Positions 2,197 to 47,943 of a stretch of 64,000 nt of DNA are shown piece by piece (position 1 is the first letter of the stretch; each line of letters begins with the position of its first letter). The stretch lies in contig CAZPKG010000011.1 of assembly GCA_964587105.1 (NCBI GenBank), positions 28,309 to 92,308 of the forward strand. The letters are read 5' to 3'. Source of the DNA: an uncultured Alphaproteobacteria bacterium. Lineage in GTDB: Bacteria > Electryoneota > RPQS01. A program made the position numbers and the translations under genes. The notes under the pieces are model-generated. The model saw only the letters and a list, made by a program, of their open reading frames with translations, made no database searches and had not been told where the DNA came from.

Positions 2197-2592
2197 ATGA
2201 ACAACACATCTCAACACCCCCTCCTCAAAGCCCAAGCCCTGCTGGCCGACCCGGAAAACCTCGACCTTGATACCCTGTCTCAGCAGTTGGCAGTCGCCGC
2301 CGTCGAAGCTGACGCGCAATCCGCACTCATTTCTCTCTATGAAGATGAACTCCGCCGCGAGCTCCGCGCAAAAGTCGATCTCGCAGGAGCAATCCCCGCA
2401 TGCCCCGATCCCGCACTTGCCTTCACCCTTAGCGGCGAACAACTTCTTTCCGCCCGCCGCCAAGCATCTCTCCACTTCAACCGCGTCTTTCAACTTGCCC
2501 CCATCTCCCGGAGCGCTATTCCCGCAAACTCAGCTCACGTAACCAAAGACCTGCTGCTCCGGTCAGGCCTTGGTACAAACTCCGCTTCGTAA
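2197..2592 (+). CDS. Hypothetical protein (Ala/Leu-rich helical; possible phage scaffold-like)
   Basis: 131-aa ORF directly downstream of an AT-rich promoter-like patch, and first gene of the plus-strand phage head block. No recognisable motif. Confidence 0.45.
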   Translation: MNNTSQHPLLKAQALLADPENLDLDTLSQQLAVAAVEADAQSALISLYEDELRRELRAKVDLAGAIPACPDPALAFTLSGEQLLSARRQASLHFNRVFQLAPISRSAIPANSAHVTKDLLLRSGLGTNSAS

Positions 2593-2604
2593 CTCTCTTC
2601 CGGC

Positions 2605-2660
2605 CTTCCTCCGTTCACGGGGGGATCAGAAGGGGGTCGCCTTCCGCACTCCCCCCTCGA
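2605..2660. repeat. Repeat family CTTCCTCCGTTCACGGGGG... (copy 2)
   Basis: ccttcctccgttcacggggggatcagaagggggtcgccttccgcactcccccctcga. Confidence 0.6.
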
Positions 2661-2777
2661 CGGCACTCGCTCAAAACCCAATCATCTGGTCTTCTCCCGC
2701 AGTTCATTTGTGATGATCGCTCATCACTCGCTCGCGCACGACCAATACTCCAATCGGAGCGATACTCCTTCAAGTCT

Positions 2778-2908: not shown

Positions 2909-3352
2909 ATGGCATCAACCTACAAAGTCAACAACGATGGCGCAGGAGCAAATCTCCTGCTCACCTTCGAAGTAGATACAACTTCAAACAAAGACTTCAC
3001 GTGGACCGACATTGACAATAATCTCGTCGCCGCGACAATGTCTGACAACAACAAGGTCGGCATGGGCTCGGCAGGTTCGCGTCTCATCGGCAAAGTCATC
3101 TCCGTTTCCGACGAACTTGCAGTCGGTACAGCCGTACCCGCACTATGCACCGTGCAAGTCACTGGTGTCGCACGTTTCCTCTACTCAGGAACCGCACCCA
3201 GCGTCGGCAACAAAGTCGAATGTGACGGCACCGGCAAAGTCCGCAAAGCCGTCACTCTCACCGATGTCCCCGCCGGCGGCACCGCTCAACGCGGCTTAGT
3301 CATCGCCGTCGATACCTCCGCCACAACCTGCGATGTCTTACTCGATGCGTAA
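2909..3352 (+). CDS. Phage head-associated protein, DUF2190-like
   Basis: 147 aa, Gly/Val/Thr-rich beta pattern (LIGKVISVSD...VTGVARF...GNKVECDGTGKV...GLVIAV) typical of DUF2190 proteins that precede major capsid genes. Sits immediately upstream of the capsid gene. Confidence 0.4.
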   Translation: MASTYKVNNDGAGANLLLTFEVDTTSNKDFTWTDIDNNLVAATMSDNNKVGMGSAGSRLIGKVISVSDELAVGTAVPALCTVQVTGVARFLYSGTAPSVGNKVECDGTGKVRKAVTLTDVPAGGTAQRGLVIAVDTSATTCDVLLDA

Positions 3353-3620: not shown

Positions 3621-4691
3621 ATGACTCTCGACTTTTCCCAAGCCTACACTCTGCGCGACAAAATCCAAGAACACTCGCGCTCCACTAATCTCGCGCTCTA
3701 TTCCGAAGCGCAAGAGCGCGGCATGACCTTCACTGAGTTGCTCGAAGAACTCGACCCGTCACCGCGTAAGCCCGACGGCCAGCTCGATGCGCCGCTTGAT
3801 GCCTTCGAGCGCCAGCTCTTTCTCGCCGATATCTCTTTTGCCGGCCGCAACGCCACCACGCTCGAACAATTCTTGAGCGGCCCCGGATTGATTCTCGCGC
3901 CTGAATATGTTTCGCGCGAAATCCGCAAAGGCTACAAGATGGTGCAAGACCCCGAAGAACTCGTGGCCGCCATCGTTCCCGAACGCGGACCCACGGTCAC
4001 GCCGCTCTATATCAAAACTGATTTCGCCAAGAAGTCTCAGCGGCGCAACGATAGCGCCGCCTATCCCGTGGTCAAGCTCGCCTATCGTCAAAAAGAGGCG
4101 GGCATGATTGATCGCGGGCGTCAATTTGATTTCAGCTATCGCATCCTGAAAAATCAAAAGCTCGCTGAGTTCCGCGTTTTCCTCTGGTGGATCGGCGCGC
4201 AATTGGCCAACGATGAAATTTCTGAAATCTACAACATCGTCATTAACGGAGACGGCACCAGCCCCGCTCCTTCAAATTCCTTCAACGGAACCGGCGGCAC
4301 GTTTGCCTATACCGACTTGGTTCATCTCGCAATGGCCTTTGATGGTCCCGCTCGTATGACGCATTTGCTCGGCGCCAAATCCGACATCGAAGCCGTCTTG
4401 AAAATCAACGAACTGCAAGATGCGCAAGCCTTTCAAGGTGGAGCATTCAACAACACCGGGGACTACCGCACATTCCTGCCGCTGAATACAAGATTGGTTG
4501 CAGTCGAAGGAGCCACGGCCACCAAGTTCGCCGCGCTCGATCATCGTTTCGCCATTCGTGAATCTGTCGCTCAACCTCTGCTCATCGAAGCCGAAAAAAT
4601 CATCTCGCACAAACTCGAATCAGCCGTCATCTCCAAAGAATCTGTTTACACCATCATGGTTGATGAAGGTATCGCCATGTCAGATTACTAA
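3621..4691 (+). CDS. Phage major capsid protein (HK97-fold family, putative)
   Basis: 356 aa, counting from the internal ATG at 3621 (the upstream part of the listed ORF lies inside a MITE copy). Length, composition and context (DUF2190-like gene upstream, terminase downstream) fit a major capsid protein. Family assignment is by resemblance, not a motif proof. Confidence 0.55.
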   Translation: MTLDFSQAYTLRDKIQEHSRSTNLALYSEAQERGMTFTELLEELDPSPRKPDGQLDAPLDAFERQLFLADISFAGRNATTLEQFLSGPGLILAPEYVSREIRKGYKMVQDPEELVAAIVPERGPTVTPLYIKTDFAKKSQRRNDSAAYPVVKLAYRQKEAGMIDRGRQFDFSYRILKNQKLAEFRVFLWWIGAQLANDEISEIYNIVINGDGTSPAPSNSFNGTGGTFAYTDLVHLAMAFDGPARMTHLLGAKSDIEAVLKINELQDAQAFQGGAFNNTGDYRTFLPLNTRLVAVEGATATKFAALDHRFAIRESVAQPLLIEAEKIISHKLESAVISKESVYTIMVDEGIAMSDY

Positions 4692-4966: not shown

Positions 4967-5332
4967 ATGAAACCCTCTCTTGCATACGCTCTCGCCAGTC
5001 AACCGTTGGTCTTTCTGACTTTCAGCGGAACACTTGGCACATCATCCGTCTATCTACCCGGCCCCGGCGGAATTGCCGCCGACGGAATTCCCATTCCGTT
5101 CGCGGGCACGCTCTCACAACTGACCGTATTCGACGGTTCAACAACTTTTGCCGATACCGACAACATCACATTTTCCGCTAACAACCGCATCAGCGTATAT
5201 TGCCAAAACATCGGTGGATCGTTCACTGTGAAAGTCCGTTTGAACGGAGTCTCCACAACACTCCAAACGGCGTCTGTCCCGCTTAGTTCGACTCTCCAAG
5301 TCACCGTCGGTTTTGCCATTAACCGCGTATAA
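4967..5332 (+). CDS. Hypothetical protein in phage head module (beta-rich)
   Basis: 121-aa ORF immediately preceded by a REP plus ATTTC-repeat leader. No recognisable family. Confidence 0.4.
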   Translation: MKPSLAYALASQPLVFLTFSGTLGTSSVYLPGPGGIAADGIPIPFAGTLSQLTVFDGSTTFADTDNITFSANNRISVYCQNIGGSFTVKVRLNGVSTTLQTASVPLSSTLQVTVGFAINRV

Positions 5333-5341: not shown

Positions 5342-6166
5342 ATGTCTTTCACATCTCTTGCTATCGTCCGCAAACATCTTGTTGCGGGCAACTTGCCTTC
5401 TCAACGAATTGAAGACGTCCGCGTTACGCTAAACGGGATTGCCGACGTATCTCTGCCGCACTTCAATTTGCTCCAAGACTTCGCGGTCGTGAAGCGGCTC
5501 GCTTCTGACAAAGCGACATATGAAACCGGTGTGCTGCTGACCAATGAAGATGAAATCAGTCTTTCCAACAAGAATCTCGAAAGAGGCAGCGTCGTCGTCG
5601 CAAATGACCTCGCCTTAAGCGAAATCTTCGACGAGGAGTTTGATTACCGCGTAAACCACGAATCCGGTTCGGTCAAACGGCTCGCTACTGGTGCGATACC
5701 AAATTCATTTCCCGCTGTGGTTTGGTATAACTACTATGAGGTTTTTGAACCCTCCATTGACTACGAATTGGACTACGTTGCCGGAGCAATCCGCCGAGTT
5801 TCCGGAAGTAACATTCCCGACGGAGCGAACATCCTTGTGGACTACACCGTCGCGCAAGGCGCCGCCGAAAACGATCTGATCGAGCAATCGATCATTGAAG
5901 CTGAAGACATAATCGTGCGGGCACTCCGCGAAGGTTACAACTCAGCTTCGACCGATCAAGGACTAAAATCCGGTGCGACATACCTGACTCTCGCGATTGT
6001 CGCGCGCGGAATGGCGGCCTTGATGCTTACTCGCAATGTGGGCAGCGACGCAAATTCCCGCGCCCGCGAATGGCAGCAGCTTTCCGACAAATGGAGTGGC
6101 GCCGCTTGGAGCGTGCTTGCGTCCTTTGTCACTCCGCATTTCATGCACTCTAACACTATCGAATAA
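5342..6166 (+). CDS. Hypothetical phage structural/assembly protein
   Basis: 274-aa ORF tightly packed between the capsid-side genes and the terminase. Its stop at 6164-6166 is followed 1 nt later by the ATG of the next ORF. Confidence 0.45.
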   Translation: MSFTSLAIVRKHLVAGNLPSQRIEDVRVTLNGIADVSLPHFNLLQDFAVVKRLASDKATYETGVLLTNEDEISLSNKNLERGSVVVANDLALSEIFDEEFDYRVNHESGSVKRLATGAIPNSFPAVVWYNYYEVFEPSIDYELDYVAGAIRRVSGSNIPDGANILVDYTVAQGAAENDLIEQSIIEAEDIIVRALREGYNSASTDQGLKSGATYLTLAIVARGMAALMLTRNVGSDANSRAREWQQLSDKWSGAAWSVLASFVTPHFMHSNTIE

Positions 6167-6167: not shown

Positions 6168-6371
6168 ATGGACGTCTTCTCCGAAGAGAGCAAACAGCAA
6201 GTTCTCGAAACTCTGTTCAAAATTGCAACGGACAACAAAAGCGCAAGCGTCCCGGCAATCAAACTCTATCTCGAACTCGCAAATGAACGTCCTTCCGCCG
6301 AAACACTTACCACTGAACAGGCTCTGGAAATCCTAAGAGAAGCACAATCAGAAAATGAGTCGTCGTCCTGA
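6168..6371 (+). CDS. Small helical protein, candidate terminase small subunit
   Basis: 67 aa (MDVFSEESKQQVLETLFKIATDNK...) directly upstream of the large terminase. Assignment by position only. Confidence 0.3.
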   Translation: MDVFSEESKQQVLETLFKIATDNKSASVPAIKLYLELANERPSAETLTTEQALEILREAQSENESSS

Positions 6372-6570: not shown

Positions 6571-8007
6571 ATGACAAAAGACCAATTCCAAGAACTCCTC
6601 CGCTGTACTCGAAATCCGTGGTATTTTCTCACGAACTATGTCAAAACCCAAGACCCTGTCAAAGGAACCTCGGCCTATCCTGATTTCGATTACTTATGTG
6701 AGTTGACATATCTTGCTCTCACTCAACGCTATCTGCTTGTTCCCAAATCAAGACAGATGATGGTCACATGGAGTATGGTTAGCCTGTTCGTATGGCGGGC
6801 GCTATTCAAACAGCCCGGTGTCTATCTTTTCCTTTCGCGCAACGAGCGTTGTGCCGAAGAGCTTTTGGACAGAGCGCGTTTTATCATAACGCATTTGCCC
6901 GAGTTCATGCGGCCTCAACTAACAACAAACAACAAATCCGAAATTGAATTCGGTGGCTTGCACTCGCGCCTGCTTTCGCTTCCGGCAACTCCCGACGGCC
7001 CGCGAATGTACTCACCCACTGCCGTCTTTTGGGATGAGATGGCCTTCACTCCGTTTGATTCGCAAATTTGGACTGCCCTGAAACCGGCTATCAGCAGCGG
7101 CGGATCGTTCGTAGGCGTATCATCTTCCGGCGGTGCACAAAATCTTTTCGCAAAGTTCTGCTCTGATTCCCCCCTGCTTGCGGGGGGGCAAGGGGGGGTG
7201 CTTCCGAAAAAAGCCAACCAACAATCCAAAGAATCAGCGCCAGCGCGAGAGGTGCTTAACAAGCACTTTCACATCCATAAAATCCACTACACCAATCACC
7301 CCGACCGCAACAACGAAGAATGGCGACTCAGCGAATCGCGCGGCCTGTCACAAAGCCAATGGGATAGAGAACAGGAAATCTCGTTTGAGTCCTTTGATGA
7401 TCTGGTCTATTCCGAGTTCGATCCGGTTGTGCATCTGCTCAAAGAGGAATTTCATCCGCGCAAAGAGTGGCCGCTCTATCGCGCAATTGATTTCGGCTTT
7501 CGCAAGCCGTTTGCATTGTGGATTCAGAAACTCCCTTCCGGTGAATATGTCGTGTTTGACGAATGGGAAGGGAGAGATTGCACAACCGAAGCCATGTATG
7601 CTTCTATCACTCGCACGGACATCCTCTTCGGTCTCAAGGAGTCTGATTACCTATGGTCCGCCTGTGACCCTGCCGGAGCCGCCGCGCAAGACAGCGGGAT
7701 TTCACCGGTGGATTACCTTGCTCGCAACGGCATGAAATTACGTTATCGTCCGTCCCGCATTTTGCCCGGCGTCGAATGCGTGAAAGCTTCGTTGCGTGAC
7801 GCCGCCGGAAGAGTTTCGCTCTTTTTCTCCCCACGCTGCCAAAAACTCATCCAAGACATGCGAAGTTATAAATGGAACGCCGCCAATGACGAACCCATCA
7901 AAGACGGCGTCAGCGATCACTCTCTCGATGCGCTCCGCTATTTCTTCGTCAACCTTGAAGGCTCCGAAGATCGAGCTCCCGCCGCGCCGCGCATTGCACG
8001 GCTATAA
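6571..8007 (+). CDS. terL: Phage terminase large subunit (Terminase_6-like), with an in-frame repeat-element insertion
   Basis: Deviant Walker A KSRQMMVT and Walker B VFWDEMAF. SSSGG ATPase motif III. RNaseH-like nuclease acidic residues (AIDFGF, CDPAG, DHSLDALRY). True start is the ATG at 6571, because the upstream part of the listed ORF is translated repeat DNA. A ~38-aa insert at 7166-7262 is encoded by a REP composite element. Confidence 0.8.
   Translation: MTKDQFQELLRCTRNPWYFLTNYVKTQDPVKGTSAYPDFDYLCELTYLALTQRYLLVPKSRQMMVTWSMVSLFVWRALFKQPGVYLFLSRNERCAEELLDRARFIITHLPEFMRPQLTTNNKSEIEFGGLHSRLLSLPATPDGPRMYSPTAVFWDEMAFTPFDSQIWTALKPAISSGGSFVGVSSSGGAQNLFAKFCSDSPLLAGGQGGVLPKKANQQSKESAPAREVLNKHFHIHKIHYTNHPDRNNEEWRLSESRGLSQSQWDREQEISFESFDDLVYSEFDPVVHLLKEEFHPRKEWPLYRAIDFGFRKPFALWIQKLPSGEYVVFDEWEGRDCTTEAMYASITRTDILFGLKESDYLWSACDPAGAAAQDSGISPVDYLARNGMKLRYRPSRILPGVECVKASLRDAAGRVSLFFSPRCQKLIQDMRSYKWNAANDEPIKDGVSDHSLDALRYFFVNLEGSEDRAPAAPRIARL
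7169..7262. repeat. Composite REP element, copy B, inserted in-frame inside the large terminase ORF
   Basis: cccccctgcttgcggggggg-caaggggggg, then tgcttccgaaaaaagccaacc...gcgccagcgcgagaggtgcttaacaagcac. Colinear with the 2778-2905 copy. Translated as ...CSDSPLLAGGQGGVLPKKANQQSKESAPAREVLNK... without stops. Confidence 0.8.
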
Positions 8008-8057: not shown

Positions 8058-10577
8058 CTATTTACTCTCGTCGCGATTGATCAATACGGGATTCTGATTA
8101 GTTAGACCGGGCGTCGGCGGAGTACAATCCAGAGTCAGAACGAAGATTACTTCGTTTGATGGATTGGGTGCGAAAAACGTGTTGGCGAACGAACCCGCCG
8201 GGGTATAAAGCGACCAATCCGCCGAGTACGATGTCGGGAAAACTGCGCTCGGATTCGTTGACCACCAAAGTGTGATGACACCCGCCTCCTGTTGATGCCA
8301 TCTTACAGTGTAGGCATCCGCAGGGGTGGCAAGCATATTAATCGTCACGCTGTCCGGAGCCGGACACGGCGGAGTAAGACAGAAGGCAAAATCATACGGC
8401 GGCTGCGATGAAGTCCCGTCTCCAAACGGCGAGGTTACCCATGTCCACGGACAGTCCGTATCACCTACCTTTGCCACGCTCATTAAGCCGCTCGGAATGC
8501 CGCAGGGCGGATGAATTTCCACGTCGTATTGGGATAAATACCTCGAGTTGAAATATAGATCCGGCAGCAGCGTTCCAGTTGCCGTAACGGTGTACTCGCA
8601 CGTGTTTCCGCCGTCTGTAAAGTAAAGACGAAATGTCTCAAACTCGCTGCAAGTACCCGTAAAACCCCAAAACCGCACGGCGCCGACTGGCTCCGGCGTG
8701 ACGTAATTGTCATACTGAATCTGACTGAAATCGATATGTGACGTGAATGCTTGCGGAGACTCCGAGTTCATCGCTGGCAGTTGACCGACCACACTACGGT
8801 TGCCGCATTCTGCGCGGATCGGGCACGGCGTATCGCAAGTAACACCCTCCGTGAACAAGCCGCCCATTGTTTGGCACATAGACAGACTCGTGATCTCGCA
8901 GCCGGGCGACTGAGGATCGCCATAACAGCAGCGGCCGTAACAAGAACTTACCGTGAGTTCAAATTGACCACAGTCAGTGTGATAGGCTTCGACAGTTAGA
9001 TAGTAGCTACCCGAGCTTAAATAAGCACAGTTAATCGCGGATAATCCTGCGAAACCACAACCGTCGTCATCCTCATAAAAAGGAGAGCCGTCGCATGTGG
9101 GCGTCAAGTATATATAACTGTCCCAAAAGTCGTTGCCATTGCAAAGTGAAAATCTCCACTCCCCATTAGACGGAATGTTCACGAAGAATGTGTAATCTTC
9201 ACTCGGCCGAAGGGGATTGTTGTTGCCTGCGCCGCACGTATTCGCCACAGCCGTGCCCGGTGCCTGCAGGAAACCGTCTATCCGGCAACCGCTGCAAGGA
9301 ATGGCGTTAACCCGCACACGGTATTCGCGGAAATCAGGGGCAATATTCAGCGCATCCGTTGCCAGAAATAGAGTGTAATCGCCCGGCTGCACACATGGAA
9401 CTCTGTAGGTTAAAGTCGAACAAGGAATGGCCTGAAACTGGTTCAAGTACGTTGTGTAGTTGCAATCGAAAGAAGGAAAACTGTTGAGTTGCAACCGAAT
9501 AGGAACTTCGGTTCTGAGCGTGATGTCCAGTGAACATGGCTCCAGAATTTGGAAATAGTACCAATCCTGATCATGTTGGCCATTCGTGGCCCACGTACGG
9601 CCGCAAACAGTCTGAAAAAGACTGATCCCCTGAATGGAATTATATCCGTTACAGAAGTAATTGCAATCGAAAACAGGATCACCACCTATTTCCTCAAACG
9701 CGCATTCAGGAACGTCATTCGGCTGACACTCAATGCTGCAATTGCCTGTGATGTTCAAAACATAACTGCCCGCACTGCTGTTGTATCCATCCACGATGAT
9801 GTAATAAACCTGTCCGGCAGTAAGGTACAACGACAGATAAGATTGAAGACTGGGACTATTGTCGTCGTTACAGCCAACTGAAAAGATACCCGGGCATGAG
9901 CCCAATGTGTGCACATACAGATAGGTGTCATACGATGAACCCATCAGTGAAATAGCGTAAAAGTCGGTTATCGTCGGAGTAAACTCATAGACTACGTCAG
10001 GTGCAAAGGTCGAGTTACACGCGGAAATAGGATTGAAATCGTTTGCGCGTCCCACAGTTGTTCCCGTATCGGTGTAAGGAATTCCGGTGATGACCGTGGC
10101 CGGACAATTGTCACTTCCTTGATCAAGCGGATTGCGTTCGCGATTCTCCGGCCGTTGCTGATACAGTGCATTCAATTGTTCTTTCAAACTTGCAAAGGTC
10201 ACTTCGTCAACCGACTGAGACTGCGCGCCGCCACGAGCCTGAAGCTCGAGTTCTCGAATCTGCTCTTCAAGCGGGGTCAATTCAGTTGGGCGAATTAACG
10301 CACCGGCTTCAAAGCCTCCGTCAACCCGACCGGACTGGAGATCGTGCACCACATTACCGGAGTGTCTCTTGACTGGTGGAAGCAGCTCCTCAATTCGTGT
10401 CATCCAAGCCGGATCAGGCGTCTCCCCTGTAGCTTTTGCGTTAGCAATCAACTCTTTAAGCTCAGAAATTTCAGCCTTTGCGTCGCGAAATGCGTCCGGC
10501 TGTGTAGCGCTCAAATCGGCTGCAACAACGAAACTATTACAGCAAAGAACAACAATCGTGAACAGCAGTTTCTTCAT
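8058..10577 (-). CDS. Giant secreted Cys-rich multidomain protein, paralog A1 (PPC-type domains, C-terminal Fn3-like domain)
   Basis: Signal peptide MKKLLFTIVVLCCNSFVVAA. Conserved module ...RPENRERNPLDQGSDNCPATVI. PPC-like domain (DVVYEF...YDTYLYV...CNDD...AGQVYYIIVDGY). C-terminus WWSTNPSAVFP...VLTLDC is Fn3-like. RBS GGAGAcgatATG. Confidence 0.8.
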   Translation of the reverse strand: MKKLLFTIVVLCCNSFVVAADLSATQPDAFRDAKAEISELKELIANAKATGETPDPAWMTRIEELLPPVKRHSGNVVHDLQSGRVDGGFEAGALIRPTELTPLEEQIRELELQARGGAQSQSVDEVTFASLKEQLNALYQQRPENRERNPLDQGSDNCPATVITGIPYTDTGTTVGRANDFNPISACNSTFAPDVVYEFTPTITDFYAISLMGSSYDTYLYVHTLGSCPGIFSVGCNDDNSPSLQSYLSLYLTAGQVYYIIVDGYNSSAGSYVLNITGNCSIECQPNDVPECAFEEIGGDPVFDCNYFCNGYNSIQGISLFQTVCGRTWATNGQHDQDWYYFQILEPCSLDITLRTEVPIRLQLNSFPSFDCNYTTYLNQFQAIPCSTLTYRVPCVQPGDYTLFLATDALNIAPDFREYRVRVNAIPCSGCRIDGFLQAPGTAVANTCGAGNNNPLRPSEDYTFFVNIPSNGEWRFSLCNGNDFWDSYIYLTPTCDGSPFYEDDDGCGFAGLSAINCAYLSSGSYYLTVEAYHTDCGQFELTVSSCYGRCCYGDPQSPGCEITSLSMCQTMGGLFTEGVTCDTPCPIRAECGNRSVVGQLPAMNSESPQAFTSHIDFSQIQYDNYVTPEPVGAVRFWGFTGTCSEFETFRLYFTDGGNTCEYTVTATGTLLPDLYFNSRYLSQYDVEIHPPCGIPSGLMSVAKVGDTDCPWTWVTSPFGDGTSSQPPYDFAFCLTPPCPAPDSVTINMLATPADAYTVRWHQQEAGVITLWWSTNPSAVFPTSYSADWSLYTPAGSFANTFFAPNPSNEVIFVLTLDCTPPTPGLTNQNPVLINRDESK

Positions 10578-10668
10578 ATCGTCTCCATTGGTTAAGTATC
10601 ATCAAGATAACATAACACGACTATATTAGTCAAGAATTAACAAGTGTGAGCAAAATAAATCAAAAAAA

Positions 10669-10690
10669 GCGGCCCGATTGCTCGGGCCGC
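10669..10690 (-). terminator. Rho-independent terminator after paralog A2
   Basis: caaaaaaa-gcggcccg-attgct-cgggccgc. Confidence 0.65.
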
Positions 10691-10723
10691 CCTTCATGAG
10701 GTAATTTCCTCGGATCAATTCGC

Positions 10724-13464: not shown

Positions 13465-13485
13465 TTCACTGACGTTCAAAAAAGG

Positions 13486-36867: not shown

Positions 36868-36882
36868 GCCGCGAAAACAAAA

Positions 36883-36908
36883 AACAGGGCACCACTTGCG
36901 TGATGCCC
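36883..36908 (-). terminator. Rho-independent terminator after 36935-38422 gene
   Basis: aaaacaaaaaa-cagggcaccacttgcgtgatgccctg. Confidence 0.6.
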
Positions 36909-36934
36909 TGTTGAAACGAACGAGTGAAGATTGT

Positions 36935-38422: not shown

Positions 38423-38639
38423 ACTACCTAATTGCTGACAAAACCAGTCATATTAATCTCTTCGTAAAGTAATAAGGAGAGTTAAAGGAGTCAAGTAGGT
38501 TTATCACCTATGTTATTAGTGACTTAGGGGGTCAATTTCCGTTTAAGCATATTGCCCACAGAAAGTTACGTTGCGAGACTGCAACACTGACCCGAGGCGG
38601 TTCTAAAAGTAACTCCTCCTTTCTCCCCAAGAAAAGAAA

Positions 38640-38665
38640 CAGGGTGCCCCAACTGGGGCACCCTG
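38640..38665 (-). terminator. Rho-independent terminator after S1 protease/T9SS gene
   Basis: gaaaagaaa-cagggtgcccc-aact-ggggcaccctg. Confidence 0.6.
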
Positions 38666-38714
38666 TGAATCCTACCATTGCTGAGCCGAAACCCGCAAGG
38701 GCGGGTTAGTTCAG

Positions 38715-41186: not shown

Positions 41187-41436
41187 ACTCTTGCTCCCGT
41201 TTACTAAGTTTTTTGCCAGGTGATGCCGCCGACAGATTGACGACACTCCTGTAATTGCGCTAAACTGCTCCTTCTTCCCAAGGAGGATAAGTAGCTTAGC
41301 GGAAATGTCCCGAATTGTCAAGACCCTCACCACTTGCCCACAAAATAAACGGTGTTCACCAATAGCAAAATCAAAAGAAGGTTGCCAAAACGAAACAGAC
41401 GGCCCGAAGGCCGCCTGCGACAGAAAAGCCGGTGCC

Positions 41437-43602
41437 TTAGTCAATCACACTTGACGTGACCACGTAGAAGTGGCTGTCAAAGGGTGAAGCGAGGACATTG
41501 AGATCGGTGTAGGATGTGGCCAGAGTTGTGGCGATAAGATTTGTTGGAATGATCTCAACGTCCGGGGTGGTTGAGCGGTAGATGTGATACTCGATGGGTT
41601 CACAGGGAAACCCTGTCCAGTTCAACACAACGCTCTCGTTTGAACGGATAATTGTTAGGGAGTCGGGAGTCAAGTCGCCGGGAGGAAGTTGAAACGGAGA
41701 TAACTCGATGGTCAGGAAGTATGGATTCGTGGCAAACGGATCCGTGCGCATCACGTAAACGTCGAGTATCGAGTTAGACGGAGAGGAAGCTGGGATCACA
41801 ATCATGCCGCACGAACACACGTCGCAATAGAGCGTCAAGTTGCCACCAAAGAACATACTCGCAGCCAACGCATACCCCGGAGAATTGCATAGTGTAACTA
41901 AGTACGTGCACGAGGGGCAATTGGGGCGGGAGTATCGGAACACGTGCTCTGCACTGGAAGCTTGGCCGCAACGATCCGGGCCCCAATCGCAGATCGGAAA
42001 GCCTGAGGCATAAAATGGCAAGCCCAGTAAGGTGAAGAGATTTTCAGACCGAAACAAATGCAACGTGAAGTTGCCCGATGCACCCGTTGAGTCGTCAATC
42101 CGCAGGTAGTACTCACTGGCCGGTACCAGAGTGCGCCGTCCGCCCGCGCCGCAACTGTCCCCAAACACGAATGCCGGTGTCAGATTTCCGCACGTTCCGG
42201 TGTAGGCGTCCACGTAGGGCGAAAACCCTATGCCTTCTGTTAAGACGTCCATGCAAGTGCTGCTTGTATTGGTCACCCGATAAAACACGTCCGGGCCGAT
42301 GCCGACACCACAGCCAAGCGAGCTATTGCTTGCGGCGATTGTGCTGCCATTGACCGCGACGTGTGTTCCGCTAAAGAGCAGGGGAATCGCAGTCGCGCAC
42401 TCGTCGCCCGGAGGGGTCACGCTTAACTCGTAATACCCGCTTTCAGACCCCGCTCCATCCACAACGATCAAATATGTAACCCCGGCCACGAATTGATAGC
42501 GAAGTTGGCTTTGCAGGCCGCACGCATTGTCATTGCAGGCCACCGGATTCAGATTGTTGCAACTGCCGAAGGGGCTTTCATAGATCTGCAATACGGTGTT
42601 AAAGCTACTGCCGCAGGTGGAAACGTCAAGAAGTGCCGTTGATGCCGGAGTGAAACGATAAACGTCGTCGCGGTTCCCGCCCAAATTGCAACTTCCCAAA
42701 TCGTCGGCAGAGAAATTCGTGTTGCCTGTTATGTAGAATGGAATATTCTCGATTACCCGTCCGAGGCAGCTGTCGCGCTCCTCTTCGACCAGCAGATTCA
42801 TGAAGTTCGCCGCAGGTGTCCGGTGATCGAGAACGATGTAGTAAACCGTGTTGGCCAGAAACGTGTACGTGAGCCGGGCTTCCGTACCACATGCGTTGTC
42901 ATTGCAGGCGACGCTGAAGGAATTAAAGCAGGTGCCGTCCACGCTTTGGACGATTTCGATAATTGTGTCTTCGGAACCGAACAGACATGAGCTGACCAGA
43001 CAGCGCCGAGTCTCCGCGAACTCCACGCGAAAGAATTGGTCCGGTCCGGATTGGGTTGTTCCACACAGGTTCACTTCATTCTGAATTCCAGCGGCAGGTT
43101 GGAAGTGCGAAAATGGAAGCTCGGTAACCTCGACTCCGGGGCAAATATCCGCATAATCCGGCAGGCGAAAAATCTGAAATGTGTAAGCTATGTCGCGGAC
43201 TTGCTCAAGCCCGATCACGCCGATTTCAATCACAACGGTTTGCCCCTGCGTCAAGGCCAAGGGATGCCCGGGAGTTTGGTCAATCGAACCCAGTTCTATT
43301 AGAATAGAATTGCCGGAACAGCAGGTACCGTCGGTCCACAAACGCATCCGGTAGTTGTCGCTGTTTGTGCTTCCTGTCATGGTAAACCTATACGTGTCCG
43401 CTGCCGGTGCGGTAAAAGTGTAGAACACGTCGTTAACGGGGTCACCTATACAAGACGGACCGTTGCTTACGTCCAGGACACCTTCGTCTCTAAACGGAAC
43501 CGAGGTCACTACTGTTGCGGATTCGCATGACGGGCCTCCGGCGGCTAAGGCGAATTGAACCGCAAACACTACAGGCAAGAGTCTAATTACAAACGACTTC
43601 AT
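41437..43602 (-). CDS. Secreted Cys-rich multidomain protein (PPC-like domains, C-terminal Fn3-like domain)
   Basis: Start at MKSFVIRLLPVVFAVQFALAAG (RBS AAGGAG). DVFYTF...YRFTM domain type. Fn3-like C-terminus (EYHIYRSTTP...FYVVTS). Confidence 0.75.
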   Translation of the reverse strand: MKSFVIRLLPVVFAVQFALAAGGPSCESATVVTSVPFRDEGVLDVSNGPSCIGDPVNDVFYTFTAPAADTYRFTMTGSTNSDNYRMRLWTDGTCCSGNSILIELGSIDQTPGHPLALTQGQTVVIEIGVIGLEQVRDIAYTFQIFRLPDYADICPGVEVTELPFSHFQPAAGIQNEVNLCGTTQSGPDQFFRVEFAETRRCLVSSCLFGSEDTIIEIVQSVDGTCFNSFSVACNDNACGTEARLTYTFLANTVYYIVLDHRTPAANFMNLLVEEERDSCLGRVIENIPFYITGNTNFSADDLGSCNLGGNRDDVYRFTPASTALLDVSTCGSSFNTVLQIYESPFGSCNNLNPVACNDNACGLQSQLRYQFVAGVTYLIVVDGAGSESGYYELSVTPPGDECATAIPLLFSGTHVAVNGSTIAASNSSLGCGVGIGPDVFYRVTNTSSTCMDVLTEGIGFSPYVDAYTGTCGNLTPAFVFGDSCGAGGRRTLVPASEYYLRIDDSTGASGNFTLHLFRSENLFTLLGLPFYASGFPICDWGPDRCGQASSAEHVFRYSRPNCPSCTYLVTLCNSPGYALAASMFFGGNLTLYCDVCSCGMIVIPASSPSNSILDVYVMRTDPFATNPYFLTIELSPFQLPPGDLTPDSLTIIRSNESVVLNWTGFPCEPIEYHIYRSTTPDVEIIPTNLIATTLATSYTDLNVLASPFDSHFYVVTSSVID

Positions 43603-43691
43603 CCGAGTCTCCTTAGTATTTGCTGCAATATAACAACGGAATATGACCAAAACAAGAATATTTGTGATTCAACAAGAATTTCCAAGAAAAA

Positions 43692-43716
43692 CGGGCGGCT
43701 TCAGTGAAGCCGCCCG
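43692..43716 (-). terminator. Rho-independent terminator after giant S1 protease gene
   Basis: agaaaaa-cgggcggcttc-agt-gaagccgcccg. Confidence 0.65.
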
Positions 43717-43741
43717 CACAAGAGAAAAGGTATTGTGCAAG

Positions 43742-46700
43742 TTATTTGCCGACGGACTTTTCTTCGACTTCGTTGTTGTCTTGGATGTGCGGATTTGAAA
43801 TCTCGACTGAGTTCACCGCCTGATCTTTAGGAAGCTGATCACCAATGGCCATAAGTCCCGGACCGTCCGCGCCGACGGCTACGACTTGGAAGAAGCCCAT
43901 CATATCGGGTGTGCTCAGGCCGCCGCTGACAGTGGCCTGAGGTGAGGTTGTGGTTAAGATCAGATTGCCCGGTGCGACAATAGCGGCTTGATTTGTCGAG
44001 TAGTAAACCTGATAAGACAGGGCATTGGCGGTCGCTCCCCAATAAAGGAAGATGTCGTCGCTGCCGTCATTGGCCAGAATGACCAGATCGTCAACAGGGT
44101 CAGGCGTCGGCGCAACGCACGGAGTTCCGCTTACGTTGATGACGTAGTTACCGCAATTCGTGCTGAAGCCGTGCACGAGGAATTGATAGTTGGTGTTGGC
44201 TTGCGCTTGGAAGGTGGCGGTGCTTTGAAGAACGTAATTCCCGCCGCAATAATTGTCGTCATTGCAGACAATCAGCGGAGCGATATTCGGGCAAACGCCG
44301 CCGTAGATTCCCAGACCGGTGTCGTAGTTTGAACCACAGAGCGAAACCGTGACGTCCTGACAGGTATTCGAGTAGTAGTTGTAAACCATCTCGCGCGAAT
44401 CTACGCCGACGCATGGCGTGTAGTTGTCAGCCATGCAGCAAGTGTTGCCGTAATCGGTGAACGGGAGCGAGGGCACATTGATGCCTGGGCAAACGTCGCC
44501 GTAGGGCATGCCCTGCGGTGCGCCGCCGGAAACATAAAGCATGAACTGTCCGGCAGCGTCGTTGTATCCGCTTACGATGATGTAGTAAGTGCGGTTGGCT
44601 TCCGCGTTGAACAAGACAGAACTTTTGAGACCGTTATTGCCGCAGGCATCATCGTTCCACGCAACGACCGTTGAGCCCGGGCACGGTCCTCCCGTGCGGA
44701 CTTCGAGGCCTGTGTCGAACAGTGTTAGTGCATCGTCACAGGTGTGAACCTGAAGCACTTGACAAACAGGTGAGGTGTATTGGAAAAATACCTCTTTCGA
44801 GCTGGGGCCTACGATAGTTGCAAAATCATCCGACGCAGGCCGCGTATCGCCGAAATCGTTAAACGGCAGACCGGTGATTACATACGGTGTTTCGCAGTCA
44901 TCGTTGTACACTTCGAGTTCGAGTGACGACATTCCTTCCGCGCCGTTAAATCCGTCCATGTGAATGTAGTATGTCGCACCGGCGCCGGCATCAAATACGA
45001 CGGTACTCGCAAGAGGATCTCCACCGCAAGTGTAATCGTCGTTACAGCCCGCGCTCCACGTTCCCGGACAGGCGCCGCCATAGCGCACGTCGAGAATCGT
45101 GTCAAAGTTTGTGAAGCAGGTTTTCGCGCGCATGGTTTGGTTATACGGTGAAACCCAATACCAATGCACATCCTGACCGTCCTGAGTCGGGCGGCATTCG
45201 GGGTTCACGTCGTCGTTGCCGCACCACGTCGCGCCATAAGTGAAATAGGGAATCTCGGTGATTTGATAGCCGGGACACTGTGCGTTGCCTTGCGCACCGG
45301 CGGCAACACCGGTTACATTCAGCGTAAAGTTACCCCAAGACGAGGCATAACCTTCTAAAACGATGAGATAAGGCACGCCGCCCTGCGCAGTGAAGGTCAC
45401 TTGACTTTGCGCGCCACAGAAGTCGTCATTACAGCCCGCGCTCGTAAACCACTGCATACATGCGCCGATCTGGAAAATGAAAAGCTGAGTGTCAAAGTTC
45501 GAGCCGCAAGTTGAGACGGTGACCGTATGATCACACGGCAACTGAAGCTGGTACATTACTTCGGGAGAAGTGTTTGTGTTGCAGCCACTCACGGTGTTGA
45601 AATTATTGGCGGCAAATTGCGTGCTGCCGGAAACGGAGAAGGGAAGCGTTGTGATTGTGGTGAAGCCGGGTTGTCCGCACGAATCGTTGGGCGGGCCAAA
45701 CGGCTGCCAGTAGTTACCTGTTTGCGAGCCGCTGTTGTTGGGATCAAGCCAATCACGCACGCGGCTTGAGGAATTTCCGCCGCCATCCCAACTTGAAGAG
45801 AGTTTGCCATAACGATCCAGCTGACTGGGCATTCCACAGCCGGAGAGACCGCCGTGCAGCTGACCAATAACGCGGCCACTGCTGGCGATCAACGGAGAAC
45901 CTGAAGAGCCGCCTTCGGTGACGCCGTTATCCCAATCCACGCGCCAATGTGTGTTAGGAAAGCTGCCGTTCCAATCGGCGCTCACGGGTGCTGAATAATC
46001 TTCACTGCCTTTCTTCACATCGCCGGAAGGATGGTGAATACCATAGGTTGAGCCCGGAGCAGTGCCACCACGATCCCAGCCCATGAATGCGGGAATATAG
46101 CCCGTGTTCGGACGCGGACGCGACAGACGCAAAAGTGCGAAATCCGAGTTTACCCAGTTGGCCAACAAGCTCGCGTTGGCGATGACGCTGTTGGTCGGGC
46201 CGTCGGTGTTGGGTGAGCACGCTGCGCTTTCATAATTAAAGACAAACTGCCAATTGGTGTGATTACCGTTCAAGCAATGATCGGCAGTCAGAAATAGCGG
46301 ATCACCGTTTTGAAGGGTGTTGTTTAGCATCGTGCCGCTGCACCAACGACCGACAGACGGATCAAAGATCATCGCAACGGCACGCTTTTCTTCCTGCATG
46401 TAGCCGAAGCAGTTGATGTTGACGTTACAGGCGCCTGAGCTGCCAAAAACGTCGAGCGGATCGCGCTCACGGACATCGTCTCGGTTAAACATGTGTCGGT
46501 AGCCGTGCAACACGGTTTGGATTGACAGCTCGTTTGTGCCTTCTGTCCCTTCAGGGATGACGAGTTCAATCGTCATGGCGCTGCCGATGATGAACGGCGA
46601 GATGTTCGTGCCGTCCCAATTGTCAATGTAAGTGAACGGCCCTTCGACTTGGGTGTGGGAATCGTTGTAGTAATAGATTTCGCACGGCTTGACCAGCTGC

Positions 46701-47071
46701 CAGCCGTCGAAGTGAAGACAGAGATCGGTTGCGTCGGGAGATTCAATCCGCAATCTCCAAACACGTGCGCCGTTAGGGAGAGTTTCCCAACTGCCGGAAT
46801 TGCTGAGATTCAGATGAACGGGCAGCGGAATTGACGAGCGAAACGGAATAGACTCGCCCGACAAACGCGCGGCCTCAATTTCTGATTCGTCTTCAGCCTT
46901 GAAGACACTGTTGTCCTGCAACGGCATCACAACTGAGCTTGGCGCGGGCACGGAAAATTGCATGCTGGGCGCTTGAACCGGCAGATTGACGGCTTGGTAC
47001 TGTGCCATTGCAAGTGAACTGCCCAGACACAGAAGCACAAGCAAATACATCGATAATCTTAACTTCTTCAT
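43742..47071 (-). CDS. Giant secreted S1-family serine protease with five PPC-like domains and a C-terminal Fn3-like domain
   Basis: Signal peptide MKKLRLSMYLLVLLCLGSSLAMA. LTADHCLNG ... DFALLRL ... GGSSGSPLI protease domain, a paralog of the 38715 protein. Repeated C.G..IT.IPY...G.T domains. C-terminus LSYQVYYSTN...FFQVVAVGADG is Fn3-like, with no T9SS CTD. Confidence 0.8.
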   Translation of the reverse strand: MKKLRLSMYLLVLLCLGSSLAMAQYQAVNLPVQAPSMQFSVPAPSSVVMPLQDNSVFKAEDESEIEAARLSGESIPFRSSIPLPVHLNLSNSGSWETLPNGARVWRLRIESPDATDLCLHFDGWQLVKPCEIYYYNDSHTQVEGPFTYIDNWDGTNISPFIIGSAMTIELVIPEGTEGTNELSIQTVLHGYRHMFNRDDVRERDPLDVFGSSGACNVNINCFGYMQEEKRAVAMIFDPSVGRWCSGTMLNNTLQNGDPLFLTADHCLNGNHTNWQFVFNYESAACSPNTDGPTNSVIANASLLANWVNSDFALLRLSRPRPNTGYIPAFMGWDRGGTAPGSTYGIHHPSGDVKKGSEDYSAPVSADWNGSFPNTHWRVDWDNGVTEGGSSGSPLIASSGRVIGQLHGGLSGCGMPSQLDRYGKLSSSWDGGGNSSSRVRDWLDPNNSGSQTGNYWQPFGPPNDSCGQPGFTTITTLPFSVSGSTQFAANNFNTVSGCNTNTSPEVMYQLQLPCDHTVTVSTCGSNFDTQLFIFQIGACMQWFTSAGCNDDFCGAQSQVTFTAQGGVPYLIVLEGYASSWGNFTLNVTGVAAGAQGNAQCPGYQITEIPYFTYGATWCGNDDVNPECRPTQDGQDVHWYWVSPYNQTMRAKTCFTNFDTILDVRYGGACPGTWSAGCNDDYTCGGDPLASTVVFDAGAGATYYIHMDGFNGAEGMSSLELEVYNDDCETPYVITGLPFNDFGDTRPASDDFATIVGPSSKEVFFQYTSPVCQVLQVHTCDDALTLFDTGLEVRTGGPCPGSTVVAWNDDACGNNGLKSSVLFNAEANRTYYIIVSGYNDAAGQFMLYVSGGAPQGMPYGDVCPGINVPSLPFTDYGNTCCMADNYTPCVGVDSREMVYNYYSNTCQDVTVSLCGSNYDTGLGIYGGVCPNIAPLIVCNDDNYCGGNYVLQSTATFQAQANTNYQFLVHGFSTNCGNYVINVSGTPCVAPTPDPVDDLVILANDGSDDIFLYWGATANALSYQVYYSTNQAAIVAPGNLILTTTSPQATVSGGLSTPDMMGFFQVVAVGADGPGLMAIGDQLPKDQAVNSVEISNPHIQDNNEVEEKSVGK

Positions 47072-47271
47072 AACTGCTCCCTTGTGGTTTGAAACGAGTG
47101 AACGCGTCGCCCAAACGGACGACGCGTTGCCCGATCACAAATTATCTAACTTAATGATTCAATTTAACGCATATTGGCGAATAGGTCAATGCTTGTCAAG
47201 TTTATTCCGCCAGAAACACAATTCTTACCTGTTTTCTAACCCTTTGTTAACTCTAACTGGAGTTCCACCTT

Positions 47272-47943
47272 ATGATTCTGCAGACCCGTTCCCACCCCAT
47301 CTCCCTCCTCAACTCACCTGAGCCGAACAGTCAGCTTGAAGCAATCAACCGTTTGCCGAATCCGCCGCTGATTCCGCTGGCGGCTGAAGATATTCATGTG
47401 CGCCGCTGCCGTTTGGCTGGTGATGCGATTGACGGTCATCTGGGCTGTTTTCGCACGAGCGATTTGGAAGACATTCTGAAGCTTGCGCACGGCGCGCCCG
47501 CATTGATCGGGCACAACCGTTATGCAATTGCCGTCGCGAGATTTTTTGGCGGCACCGTTGAAACACATCAGAACCACAAATACATCGTGCCGAATTTCTA
47601 TTGGCCGAAAGCGCACAGCGGCGCGGAAGACTTTCGCATTTTGCTTGACAGCGGCATCATCACCGAGGCCTCGATTGCGTTCACGTTCAACAAACCGAGT
47701 TGTTCTATTTGCGGCCACGATATTCGTGAATGCGAACACGATCCGGGCGTCATGTACGGGCAGCAACTCTGCCACTACTGGTATGACGGTGTAGATAGAG
47801 TGCTTGAAGGCAGCTTTGTCTATCGCGGCAGCGAGCCGGGAACAGGCGTGCTGGCAGAAATGAAAAATGTTCGCAGCGAACTAAAAAACCGCAGAATGAA
47901 ACTGCGGTTGGGGGGACGTGTGTACGAGGTTCTTCCTGCATAA
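47272..47943 (+). CDS. Phage prohead protease-like protein (HK97 gp4 / S78-like, putative) with C-terminal Cys/His cluster
   Basis: LIGHNRYAIAVARFFGG resembles the His block of prohead proteases (LLWGHD..PIGR). ITEASIAFTF resembles the GASIGF Ser block. CSICGHDIRECEHD is a possible metal site. RBS GGAG. The only plus-strand gene in this part of the window. Confidence 0.45.
   Translation: MILQTRSHPISLLNSPEPNSQLEAINRLPNPPLIPLAAEDIHVRRCRLAGDAIDGHLGCFRTSDLEDILKLAHGAPALIGHNRYAIAVARFFGGTVETHQNHKYIVPNFYWPKAHSGAEDFRILLDSGIITEASIAFTFNKPSCSICGHDIRECEHDPGVMYGQQLCHYWYDGVDRVLEGSFVYRGSEPGTGVLAEMKNVRSELKNRRMKLRLGGRVYEVLPA

Follow-up and report, generated by a model that had tools for sequence, protein, structure and literature searches.

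To our knowledge, gene transfer agents (GTAs) have been recognised in only a handful of lineages, each known case representing a separate domestication of a phage. PBSX-like particles package host DNA, and encapsulins are HK97-fold shell proteins recruited by cells. GTAs have been described as domesticated prophages (PMC11841831, PMC9632790). Nuclease-protected DNA of gut capsids has been sequenced with long reads (PMC12946183). The capsid-forming PICIs (cf-PICIs) are described (10.1101/2025.02.11.637232) as elements with a terminase, portal, protease, capsid and connectors of their own and no tail. In this study, we report a set of phage head and DNA-packaging genes in an uncultured bacterium (GTDB Electryoneota RPQS01) which, judged from its sequence, is probably a new GTA-like system. 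A literature search on GTAs in KSB1, Calditrichaeota and Electryoneota retrieved no matching publication.

The window, i.e. the whole stretch of DNA that was analysed, comprises 64,000 nt of the 103.8-kb contig CAZPKG010000011.1 (assembly GCA_964587105.1). Its plus strand carries nine intact phage head and packaging genes between 2197 and 47943, a span of 45.7 kb. Seven of them are grouped at 2197-8007, and the portal and protease genes lie apart downstream, beyond gaps of 21,296 bp (TerL to portal) and 16,677 bp (portal to protease) that contain minus-strand genes only. A first-pass annotation made from the letters alone had listed six full-length head genes on the plus strand, separated by two long blocks of minus-strand genes for secreted proteins. 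This picture holds: the six genes are found at or near the positions assigned to them, all nine cluster ORFs are intact, and many of the gap genes encode cargo of type IX secretion (T9SS). Three conserved cluster genes (2197-2592, 4967-5332 and 5342-6166) had been missed or left unnamed. The features of the locus are:

2136..2164, plus strand: sigma-70-like promoter match (TTGACA-17-TACATT), the best match upstream of the first cluster gene
2197..2592, plus strand: p131, small and apparently helix-rich, first gene of the cluster in the window clade
2909..3352, plus strand: virion structural protein just 5' of the capsid gene (phrog_4588, E 1.4e-11)
3621..4691, plus strand: major capsid protein (phrog_3922, major head protein, E 5.7e-37)
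4967..5332, plus strand: p121, conserved small protein
5342..6166, plus strand: p274, two beta (Ig-like) domains and a C-terminal helical bundle
6168..6371, plus strand: 67-aa gene directly 5' of TerL, candidate small terminase (TerS)
6571..8007, plus strand: predicted large terminase (TerL) of T4 gp17 type (phrog_2, E 7e-24)
7160..7198, no strand assigned: REP-like repeat copy (position 7182), in frame within the TerL inter-domain linker
8058..28914, minus strand: host block 1, five tandem secreted paralogs of ~830 aa, then LVIVD and Por_Secre_tail proteins
29303..30595, plus strand: portal protein (phrog_3753, E 7e-34)
30665..47071, minus strand: host block 2, secreted proteases (Trypsin_2, PPC, Por_Secre_tail), a PDZ-hydrolase and unknowns
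47272..47943, plus strand: prohead (capsid maturation) protease with predicted assemblin / T4 gp21 fold and a CxxC...CxH insertion

The gene identities were derived from PHROG profiles, from matches to PDB profiles and from predicted folds, not from Pfam. Of the Pfam families proposed for checking the earlier assignments, the terminase is recovered (Terminase_6N at threshold, 22.4 bits with a cutoff of 22), whereas Phage_portal, Phage_capsid, Peptidase_S78 and DUF2190 fail their thresholds. The capsid protein scores 21.7 bits with Phage_capsid_4 (cutoff 27, hence sub-threshold), the portal has no Pfam match, and none of 29 protease homologues matches Peptidase_S78 at E <= 1. That portal, capsid and protease stay below Pfam thresholds was counted against the explanation preferred below. 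PDB profile searches with the protease, p274, p121, decoration-like protein, portal and capsid profiles gave nothing significant, and TerL alone was matched. The names previously given to the capsid, large terminase and portal genes are nevertheless borne out by the profile matches listed above, and that of the prohead protease by its predicted fold. For the gene at 2909 a virion structural assignment stands (phrog_4588) and the DUF2190 label does not.

Concerning the packaging genes, the TerL profile matches T4 gp17 structures with E 2e-20. The true start of TerL is M73 of the 6355 ORF, and its ATPase and nuclease motifs are intact (KSRQ, WDEMAF and the nuclease Asp residues, invariant in an alignment of eight sequences). 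On profile similarity and these conserved residues, the product is classed as a predicted large terminase of T4 gp17 type. The small gene before it is called as a 67-aa gene also on identical Logan contigs, shows a weak HTH match and has homologous small counterparts preceding TerL in other clades (clusters 22 and 15); by its position only, it is a TerS candidate (dN/dS 0.23). Reads from SRR14271333, SRR14271343, SRR14271345 and SRR35571891 contain genes identical to those of the window. The portal (dN/dS 0.06-0.12) has 234 homologues with identity down to about 50%, some of them on Mb-size bacterial contigs. The protease (dN/dS 0.057) matches phrog_16951 with E 3e-17 and has H81 and S134 invariant across the family; its modelled fold together with the conserved His and Ser places it with the assemblin / T4 gp21-type proteases.

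Among the structural genes, the capsid protein is 95% identical in amino acids to that of L004 (dN/dS 0.044). The protein encoded at 2909..3352 shows 69% mean column identity across 18 genomes (dN/dS 0.14-0.18), and its position, as the sole indication, suggests that it is decoration-like. p131 is conserved in L004, L006, L007, L008, L010 and L011 (dN/dS 0.17-0.20) and has neither a Pfam nor a PHROG match; one might speculate that it serves as a scaffold. Homology of p131 to the small gene at the equivalent position in other clades (cluster 19) was considered and is not detectable. p121 is found in at least 22 loci (dN/dS 0.12-0.24) and gave no significant family or PDB match. p274 is a probable head-to-tail adaptor (neck) protein; in Foldseek comparisons with viral models chiefly its Ig-like domains were matched, which does not settle the role. 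Upstream of the first gene, the promoter call at 2136..2164 reflects agreement with the consensus and no more, and this lineage may not follow sigma-70 rules. A sigma-70 scan upstream of the portal gave a score not above background. No promoter or operator common to the three cluster fragments was found, only start-proximal bases and a terminator hairpin being conserved upstream.

The genes between the fragments are of a different kind. Many of them carry Por_Secre_tail, LVIVD, PPC or Trypsin_2 domains, and seven domain-less intervening ORFs searched against PHROG matched no family. The single inserted giant protein that was inspected in full begins with a signal-peptide-like start. The idea that the inserted giant proteins are tail fibres was rejected, since they lie on the opposite strand, several have T9SS sorting domains and none has a PHROG match. 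T9SS cargo genes recur inside or adjoining the cluster in several lineages. Moreover, short repeats have entered the module, as the first-pass annotation had observed. A REP family (GGGGGGNTTANGGGGGG) is present in 13 copies in the window, with 0.03 expected; four copies lie in spacers between head genes (at 2803, 3376, 4914 and 6409), and the copy within TerL belongs to a clade-specific insert of about 30 aa. The spacers of each genome's cluster are filled by that genome's own short repeats.

Comparison with relatives, all of which are metagenome-assembled genomes (MAGs), gives the history of this arrangement. In a scan of species-representative genomes the portal was found in 58 loci, each from a separate assembly record, in MAGs labelled KSB1, Electryoneota, LCP-89 and Calditrichaeota. 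A compact same-strand cluster of about 7 kb is present in about 40 of the 58 species-level loci. Apart from two isolated genomes, split clusters are limited to the window clade, its sister clade and one LCP-89 clade. MAGs of the window clade further include GCA_023382385.1 and contigs of 1.0-3.4 Mb. Synteny with L004, L002 and GCA_013360195.1 extends across the region and includes the flanking host genes; L004 and GCA_013360195.1 carry a subset of the inserted genes and have the same host genes on the flanks, and host block 1 is missing from the compact relatives. Because the usual arrangement in relatives is the compact cluster, the dispersal is, on these genome comparisons, taken as a lineage-specific event of insertion and tandem duplication. 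An ancient dispersed context, as had been assumed at first, is therefore not supported: the scattering is not ancestral, and the window lineage acquired the insertions. Some distant clades have in addition an XRE regulator, a holin-like gene and an amidase. An Amidase_2 endolysin adjoins the cluster in nine distant loci, the sister clade has a holin-like small membrane protein, and in other clades virion-structural-like genes follow the protease. Peptidase_M78 is present in some clades. In a six-frame profile search, the accessory genes that come after the protease in other clades (a ~185-aa protein, the holin-like gene and the amidase) were absent from the window, which was counted against the explanation preferred below. 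Deeper relationships are less regular. A crude NJ tree of the portal puts two Electryoneota genomes in different clades and is not obviously congruent with the NCBI phylum labels, and between-gene identity correlations are only moderate (rho 0.38-0.62). Shared chromosomal inheritance is indicated for the window clade only.

Within the window clade the genes behave as part of the host genome. In comparison with two already fragmented relatives, dN/dS of the nine genes is 0.04-0.24 wherever dS is estimable, each gene having an estimate in at least one of the two pairwise comparisons; the values are approximate because dS is near saturation. The dN/dS check proposed along with the first description of the locus accordingly indicates purifying selection. 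Head-gene dS amounts to 0.6-2.4 and is similar to that of host neighbours, which is 1.15-2.3 plus saturated values. GC content and GC3 are 0.531 and 0.593 for the head genes and 0.526 and 0.58 for host genes, codon usage of the two groups correlates with r 0.89, and capsid and portal have changed less than the host genes that separate them. As far as these comparisons reach, the head genes are to be regarded as chromosome-resident and co-diverging with the host in the window clade. The proposal of host-retained genes under selection, as opposed to fresh prophage decay, agrees with dN/dS, synteny, amelioration and the spread over 58 genomes.

Functions that a phage would need beyond the head are lacking here. 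When the large ORFs were scanned with Pfam and PHROG, the earlier impression was confirmed that the window holds no tail, lysis, integrase or repressor gene, and no replication genes are found in the 64 kb. Ordinary prophage genes just outside the cluster had been named as the finding that would overturn a domesticated module. GCA_013360195.1 is the nearest relative whose flanks are long; within about 7 kb upstream and 10 kb downstream it has no tail, lysis, replication or integrase gene. The flanks of the 58 loci consist of housekeeping genes, without a recurrent integrase, replication or tail family, and around four compact clusters no att-like flanking direct repeats were detected, only dispersed host repeats. 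A megaphage or plasmid origin was considered and discarded in view of housekeeping genes (pyrF, PRTase, MGMT-like) and the Mb-size chromosomal contigs of relatives. The best GenBank phage matches have 25% (portal) and 31% (capsid) identity, and a related portal occurs in only five short IMG/VR fragments. Judged by its gene content, the set has no replication, integration or lysogeny module and would be incapable of propagating itself. Since no tail, lysis gene or regulator is visible in the 64 kb, a route of release and delivery is not evident for the window clade, which also counts against the explanation preferred below.

We incline, slightly beyond an even judgement, to the explanation that the locus is an anciently domesticated GTA-like capsid and DNA-packaging module that has become a normal component of the chromosome under selection. 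From the gene content we infer a GTA-like or head-only packaging function, comprising particle formation, DNA packaging and a benefit for the host. The genes would derive from one head-assembly and DNA-packaging module of a tailed phage, taken over long ago by a bacterial lineage, with an ancestral order over about 7 kb of small protein, decoration-like protein, capsid, p121, adaptor, TerS candidate, TerL, portal and protease. Opposite-strand host genes, mostly for T9SS cargo, would have been inserted at the terminase-portal and portal-protease junctions, and one inserted gene would then have been duplicated in tandem five times, stretching the set to its present length. The protease-matured capsid would assemble around the portal, the gp17-type terminase would fill it with DNA, and the adaptor would close or extend the portal. 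Such a particle, GTA-like or confined to a packaging head, would serve the host and would not be a virus. A more specific version, namely an independently domesticated GTA-like capsid system without sequence relationship to the known GTAs, common to several uncultivated FCB-group phyla (KSB1, Electryoneota, LCP-89 and relatives), here tail-less or tail-borrowing and with genes scattered between those for secreted proteins and presumably co-regulated in trans, is tentative, and we regard it as possible rather than probable.

Several other explanations have to be weighed against the preferred one. The window may contain one half, the head genes, of a complete GTA or of an inducible defective phage whose tail, lysis and regulatory genes survive at other chromosomal positions, like the additional loci of RcGTA, the particle then being tailed and DNA-transferring. 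The adaptor-like p274 is kept under selection, which is most sensible if something docks on the portal; the virion-structural-like, holin-like and amidase genes by the protease and the XRE gene upstream in other clades point in the same direction, and the cluster tolerates break-up. However, neither the 64 kb nor the flanks of GCA_013360195.1 contain anything tail-like, and no tail family recurs beside the 58 loci, and we consider a complete GTA unlikely. Rather improbable, in our judgement, is a head-only system that borrows the tails of co-resident or infecting phages in the manner of capsid-forming PICIs, for DNA transfer or interference with a helper. The window does hold genes for head, packaging and adaptor but none for a tail, and the cf-PICI report describes tail-less capsids that are completed by foreign tails (10.1101/2025.02.11.637232). 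Against this reading are the lack of integrase, replication genes and island boundaries, the interleaved host genes, the lack of self-mobilisation and the fact that no helper phage is known.

Three further readings have far less in their favour. Re-purposing of the shell as a protein compartment or secreted particle without DNA, encapsulin-like and perhaps tied to T9SS cargo, would fit the recurrence of such cargo genes by or inside the cluster, an association that may merely mirror the abundance of these genes in the genomes; with portal, adaptor and a gp17-type terminase with intact motifs all under selection, it is very improbable. We give scarcely any credence to a cryptic prophage remnant that decays slowly and is functionless at present. 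The module is broken up and no longer has its neighbouring accessory genes, repeats have entered it and even TerL, and L031, L032 and L057 contain possible frameshifts, which may be sequencing errors or real decay. Yet nine ORFs have remained intact under low dN/dS over a dS of about 1 since fragmentation, the catalytic residues are invariant, and capsid and portal outdo the intervening host genes in conservation. An active prophage or satellite moving between these bacteria is hardly credible either: the XRE regulator, Peptidase_M78 and endolysin of some clades and the poor fit of the portal tree to phylum labels would suit it, but integrase and att-like repeats were not found, the 58 loci of the genome scan come from 58 different assembly records, the head genes are interleaved with host genes in a region syntenic with host flanks, and the family is nearly absent from viral collections.

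If the preferred explanation of a domesticated packaging module is true, a sequence-unrelated GTA case over several uncultivated phyla widens the expected range of host-controlled DNA-packaging particles. The compact, partly split and widely split forms would represent a dated natural experiment on the break-up of a phage operon, and the portal, capsid, protease and terminase profiles a marker set for such particles in viromes. Virus-detection pipelines will label these host loci viral, and the five short IMG/VR contigs probably already reflect host loci miscalled in this way.

Like the RcGTA-type GTAs of Rhodobacter capsulatus and Caulobacter crescentus, the locus consists of chromosome-fixed phage structural genes that are inherited with the host and are under purifying selection. 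Replication and integration genes are absent, the compact relatives have a small cluster of about 7-12 kb, and contiguity is not needed. The 45.7 kb spanned by the gene set is at most an indirect pointer to packaged DNA pieces too short to hold all of it. Unlike RcGTA, it belongs to uncultivated FCB-group hosts and is known here from genes alone. A sequence relationship to RcGTA is not detectable (Phage_portal, HK97 Phage_capsid and Peptidase_S78 are unmatched at E <= 0.01), the capsid block precedes the terminase, and no tail genes were found in the window set. With the cf-PICIs it shares a head and packaging module of its own without tail genes. However, cf-PICIs are discrete, self-packaging mobile islands that carry genes for integrase, regulation and replication, none of which is present in the window. 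The window genes alternate with 38 kb of host genes and are inherited with the chromosome, and four compact loci showed no flanking direct repeats. PBSX of Bacillus subtilis resembles the locus in that phage structural genes are fixed in the chromosome and serve the host, a service that in the window clade is presumed. PBSX-like elements are contiguous and tailed, with lysis genes, a repressor and a narrow host range, none of which is seen in the window. Encapsulins, finally, are without portal, terminase, protease and adaptor, whereas the window set has all four, and they are conserved.

Nine genes for phage head formation and DNA packaging lie on the plus strand of the window, in the following order:

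2197-2592, plus strand: p131, no function assignable
2909-3352, plus strand: decoration-like gene, virion structural protein (PHROG E 1.4e-11)
3543/3621-4691, plus strand: major head protein, the capsid (PHROG E 5.7e-37)
4967-5332, plus strand: p121, no function assignable
5342-6166, plus strand: p274, probable head-to-tail adaptor
6168-6371, plus strand: 67-aa gene, candidate small terminase by position
6355/6571-8007, plus strand: large terminase TerL (PHROG E 7e-24)
29303-30595, plus strand: portal (PHROG E 7e-34)
47272-47943, plus strand: prohead protease, identified by predicted fold

Four of these identities come from PHROG profiles, and the TerL family profile in addition matches T4 gp17 structures (E 2e-20). 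The proposal of the first-pass annotation that these are genuine phage head genes is thereby borne out. Pfam is much weaker. Terminase_6N reaches 22.4 bits on TerL (cutoff 22), Phage_capsid_4 scores 21.7 bits on the capsid, below its cutoff of 27, and the Pfam scan yields no match for the portal or for the genes at 2909 and 47272; the proposed Pfam check therefore formally fails for four of five genes. Alignment of TerL with seven homologues places its true start at 6571, with KSRQ, WDEMAF and the nuclease aspartates invariant.

The surrounding 64 kb are bacterial chromosome. Host genes include pyrF (OMPdecase), a phosphoribosyltransferase, an MGMT-like protein, a metallo-beta-lactamase-fold protein and RDD-family proteins, and many minus-strand genes carry Por_Secre_tail, the sorting domain of type IX secretion (T9SS), alongside LVIVD, PPC, Trypsin_2 and PDZ-hydrolase domains. 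No tRNA gene was found in the window, and GC content is flat (0.47-0.55). Two neighbouring paralogous 131-aa ORFs (55758-56153, 56263-56658) have no function assigned, and paralogous zinc-ribbon RDD-family membrane proteins (59742-60251, 61420-62052) stand one on each side of the phosphoribosyltransferase.

Homologues of the portal number 234 and span identities from 100% to about 50%; several are carried by bacterial contigs 1-5.4 Mb long, and the source labels are Calditrichaeota, KSB1, LCP-89 or plain "bacterium". Scanning a single genome for each species yielded 58 portal loci, every one from a separate assembly record and two Candidatus Electryoneota genera among them; onto these loci (L numbers) we mapped the nine proteins and clustered all flanking ORFs. 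About 40 of the 58 hold one same-strand cluster of roughly 7 kb with spacers below 1 kb, in the order small protein, decoration-like gene, capsid, p121, p274, small gene, TerL, portal, protease. The scattering, which the first-pass annotation called ancient, is thus derived and not ancestral. Split clusters occur in the window's clade (portal identity at least 79%), patchily in the sister clade (66-73%), in an LCP-89-type clade and in two single genomes. The gaps widen as follows.

Distances between head genes in the window, two relatives of its clade (L004, GCA_013360195.1) and one sister-clade locus (L006)
L006: TerL to portal 159 bp; portal to protease about 60 bp
L004: TerL to portal 3.2 kb; portal to protease about 6 kb
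GCA_013360195.1: TerL to portal 8.4 kb; portal to protease 7.7 kb
Window: TerL to portal 21.3 kb; portal to protease 16.7 kb

In all of these genomes almost every inserted gene is encoded on the opposite strand. The window's TerL-portal gap is enlarged by five tandem paralogs (8058-21157, 2.7-kb period) of about 830 aa without Pfam or PHROG family, with 23564-25891 and 30665-35196 noted alongside; the paralog at 8058-10577, translated in full, is Cys-rich with a signal-peptide-like N-terminus. As the closest relatives carry only one such gene, the five represent a recent tandem expansion of an uncharacterised secreted-protein family. Seven ORFs of the inserted blocks that lack a recognised domain were compared with PHROG, and none matched.

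The terminase-portal and portal-protease junctions are hit in L004, L007, L008, L011, L017, L021, L052, L055 and the window, and host genes entered there independently in several lineages. The newcomers nearly always run on the opposite strand and are often T9SS cargo; such cargo genes also adjoin many compact clusters, which may reflect no more than their genomic background. Locus L008 carries a duplicated portal 3' fragment (14167-14394, 74% identical to residues 354-429) 3 kb downstream of the intact portal and beside inserted genes, which may be the scar of an insertion event. Defence-like or accessory cargo is seen in L010, where a Dam-like methylase and small genes lie between terminase and portal (6801-9727), and in L061, where a HEPN-domain protein follows the amidase (15516-17200). 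In a KSB1-type clade the protease ORF reaches 731-826 aa (L016 6765-8957, L026 7169-9646, L027 4245-6560, L048 1149-3341) because some 500 uncharacterised residues are added at its C-terminus, and p274 is immediately preceded by a protein with a CBM96 domain that can be as long as 871 aa.

The window, L004 and GCA_013360195.1 have in common the split arrangement, a subset of inserted genes in conserved order, and the same host genes to either side. Pairwise Nei-Gojobori dN/dS against L004 is 0.044 for the capsid, 0.057 for the protease, 0.089 for the portal, 0.115 for p121, 0.118 for TerL, 0.144 for the decoration-like gene and 0.168 for p131; p274 gives no estimate because dS is saturated. 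Against GCA_013360195.1 the eight estimable head genes range from 0.06 to 0.24 (p274 0.14, 67-aa gene 0.23; protease excluded, dS saturated), and syntenic host genes show 0.02-0.19, all ratios being approximate since dS is near saturation. The dS ranges of head genes (0.6-2.4) and host neighbours (1.15-2.3, some saturated) are alike, so the head genes diverged alongside the chromosome. Capsid and portal keep 87-95% amino acid identity versus about 60-66% for the secreted-protein genes between them. Head genes also resemble host genes in GC (0.531 and 0.526) and GC3 (0.593 and 0.58), and their codon usage correlates with that of non-secreted host genes (r 0.89). The suggestion that the host retains these genes under selection agrees with the low ratios, and the head genes stayed constrained after fragmentation. 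Three loci have portal or protease frameshifts, possibly sequencing errors. Every genome used is a MAG, and the labels are inconsistent. The records of L004, L007, L008, L011 and L057 bear the title "uncultured Alphaproteobacteria bacterium", a label that looks wrong given their T9SS cargo genes and how closely they resemble MAGs labelled KSB1 or Calditrichaeota.

Host-type repeats do lie between and inside the phage genes, as had been noticed. The G-rich, REP-like repeat GGGGGGNTTANGGGGGG, arranged as CCCCCC-hairpin-GGGGGGNTTANGGGGGG, has 13 copies in the window (0.03 expected), with copies at positions 147, 2803, 3376, 4914, 6409, 7182, 51413, 52396, 61380, 62084, 62488 and 63467; no copy was found in the secreted-protein blocks at 8-51 kb. 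In the left-hand head block four spacers contain copies, and another copy, within TerL (7160-7198), is translated in frame. It contributes to an insert of some 30 aa that lies in the linker joining the ATPase and nuclease domains; L004, L006 and L010 also have an insert at this site, and more distant homologues lack one. Near-identical copies of a second short hairpin, GGGGCACCCGCAGCGGGTGCCGCCGCG, which may be a terminator, all lie in intergenic spacers (6499-6527, 21260-21287, 36847-36875, 59699-59725). MITE-like elements with the inverted-repeat ends GTCATCCTGAAGG ... CAGGATGACA and GTCATTCTGAAGG ... CAGAATGACGAC are located just upstream of capsid and portal (~3460-3580, 29041-29260). Other genomes fill the cluster spacers with their own repeat families, which fits long residence in each chromosome.

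No active phage with this head module was found in IMG/VR, GenBank phage records or the representative-protein search. IMG/VR holds only five related portals (43-52% identity) on 6-9 kb fragments (L062-L066), which are probably pieces of bacterial chromosome called viral because of their head genes. The best matches in 50,697 GenBank phage records are 25% (portal) and 31% (capsid) identical, and searching 1.84 billion representatives with a portal profile gave 58 proteins at E <= 1e-30, beyond which scores drop to distant portals of other sizes.

The absence of tail, lysis and integrase genes reported for the window extends to 7 kb upstream (Fic, ferredoxin, P450, ORF6N, unknowns) and 10 kb downstream (MGMT-like, secreted proteins, PPIase) of the cluster in GCA_013360195.1; the first-pass annotation would have yielded to such genes within ordinary prophage boundaries, and these flanks show none. 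Profiles built from cluster flanks in other clades (divergent XRE regulator, post-protease protein of ~185 aa, virion-structural-like protein, holin-like small membrane protein, Amidase_2 endolysin) had no match in the window's six-frame translation. A census of 150 flank proteins drawn from all loci turned up housekeeping functions, regulators of the XRE and M78 types and endolysins, with no recurrent integrase or tail family among the 25 commonest families listed, though single occurrences may exist beyond these, and no att-like direct repeats surround four compact clusters.

A phage head and packaging module has thus been fixed in the chromosome, ameliorated and inherited with its neighbours under purifying selection, and in the window's lineage its genes became separated as host genes were inserted between them and duplicated. 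We infer that its products would still build a DNA-filled capsid, because portal, protease, adaptor and a motif-intact terminase are retained. The tail and lysis functions by which such particles would be released or delivered may sit elsewhere in the genome, may be altogether absent, or may be borrowed from phages in the manner of capsid-forming PICIs (10.1101/2025.02.11.637232). Portal clades track accessory gene content, which points to descent with modification; however, two Electryoneota genomes fall in different portal clades of a crude NJ tree, and ancient transfers between related phyla may therefore have occurred.

Among known systems, a capsid-forming PICI is rejected, there being no integrase, replication gene or island boundary in the window and the flanks surveyed, and an encapsulin because portal and terminase are present. 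The closest functional analogue would be a gene transfer agent (GTA), a particle system that derives from a domesticated prophage (PMC11841831, PMC9632790). Full-text literature searches that paired GTAs with KSB1, Calditrichaeota or Electryoneota found no paper, and the one naming Electryoneota makes no mention of phage or capsid. As in GTAs, phage-derived particle genes have been domesticated; membership in the alphaproteobacterial RcGTA family is rejected because its Pfam families give no match in the head genes. The module's genes stand in a rearranged order, and the window's clade yielded no tail. We rate the module as a domestication in uncultivated FCB lineages that is putatively independent and has no sequence relationship to known cases.
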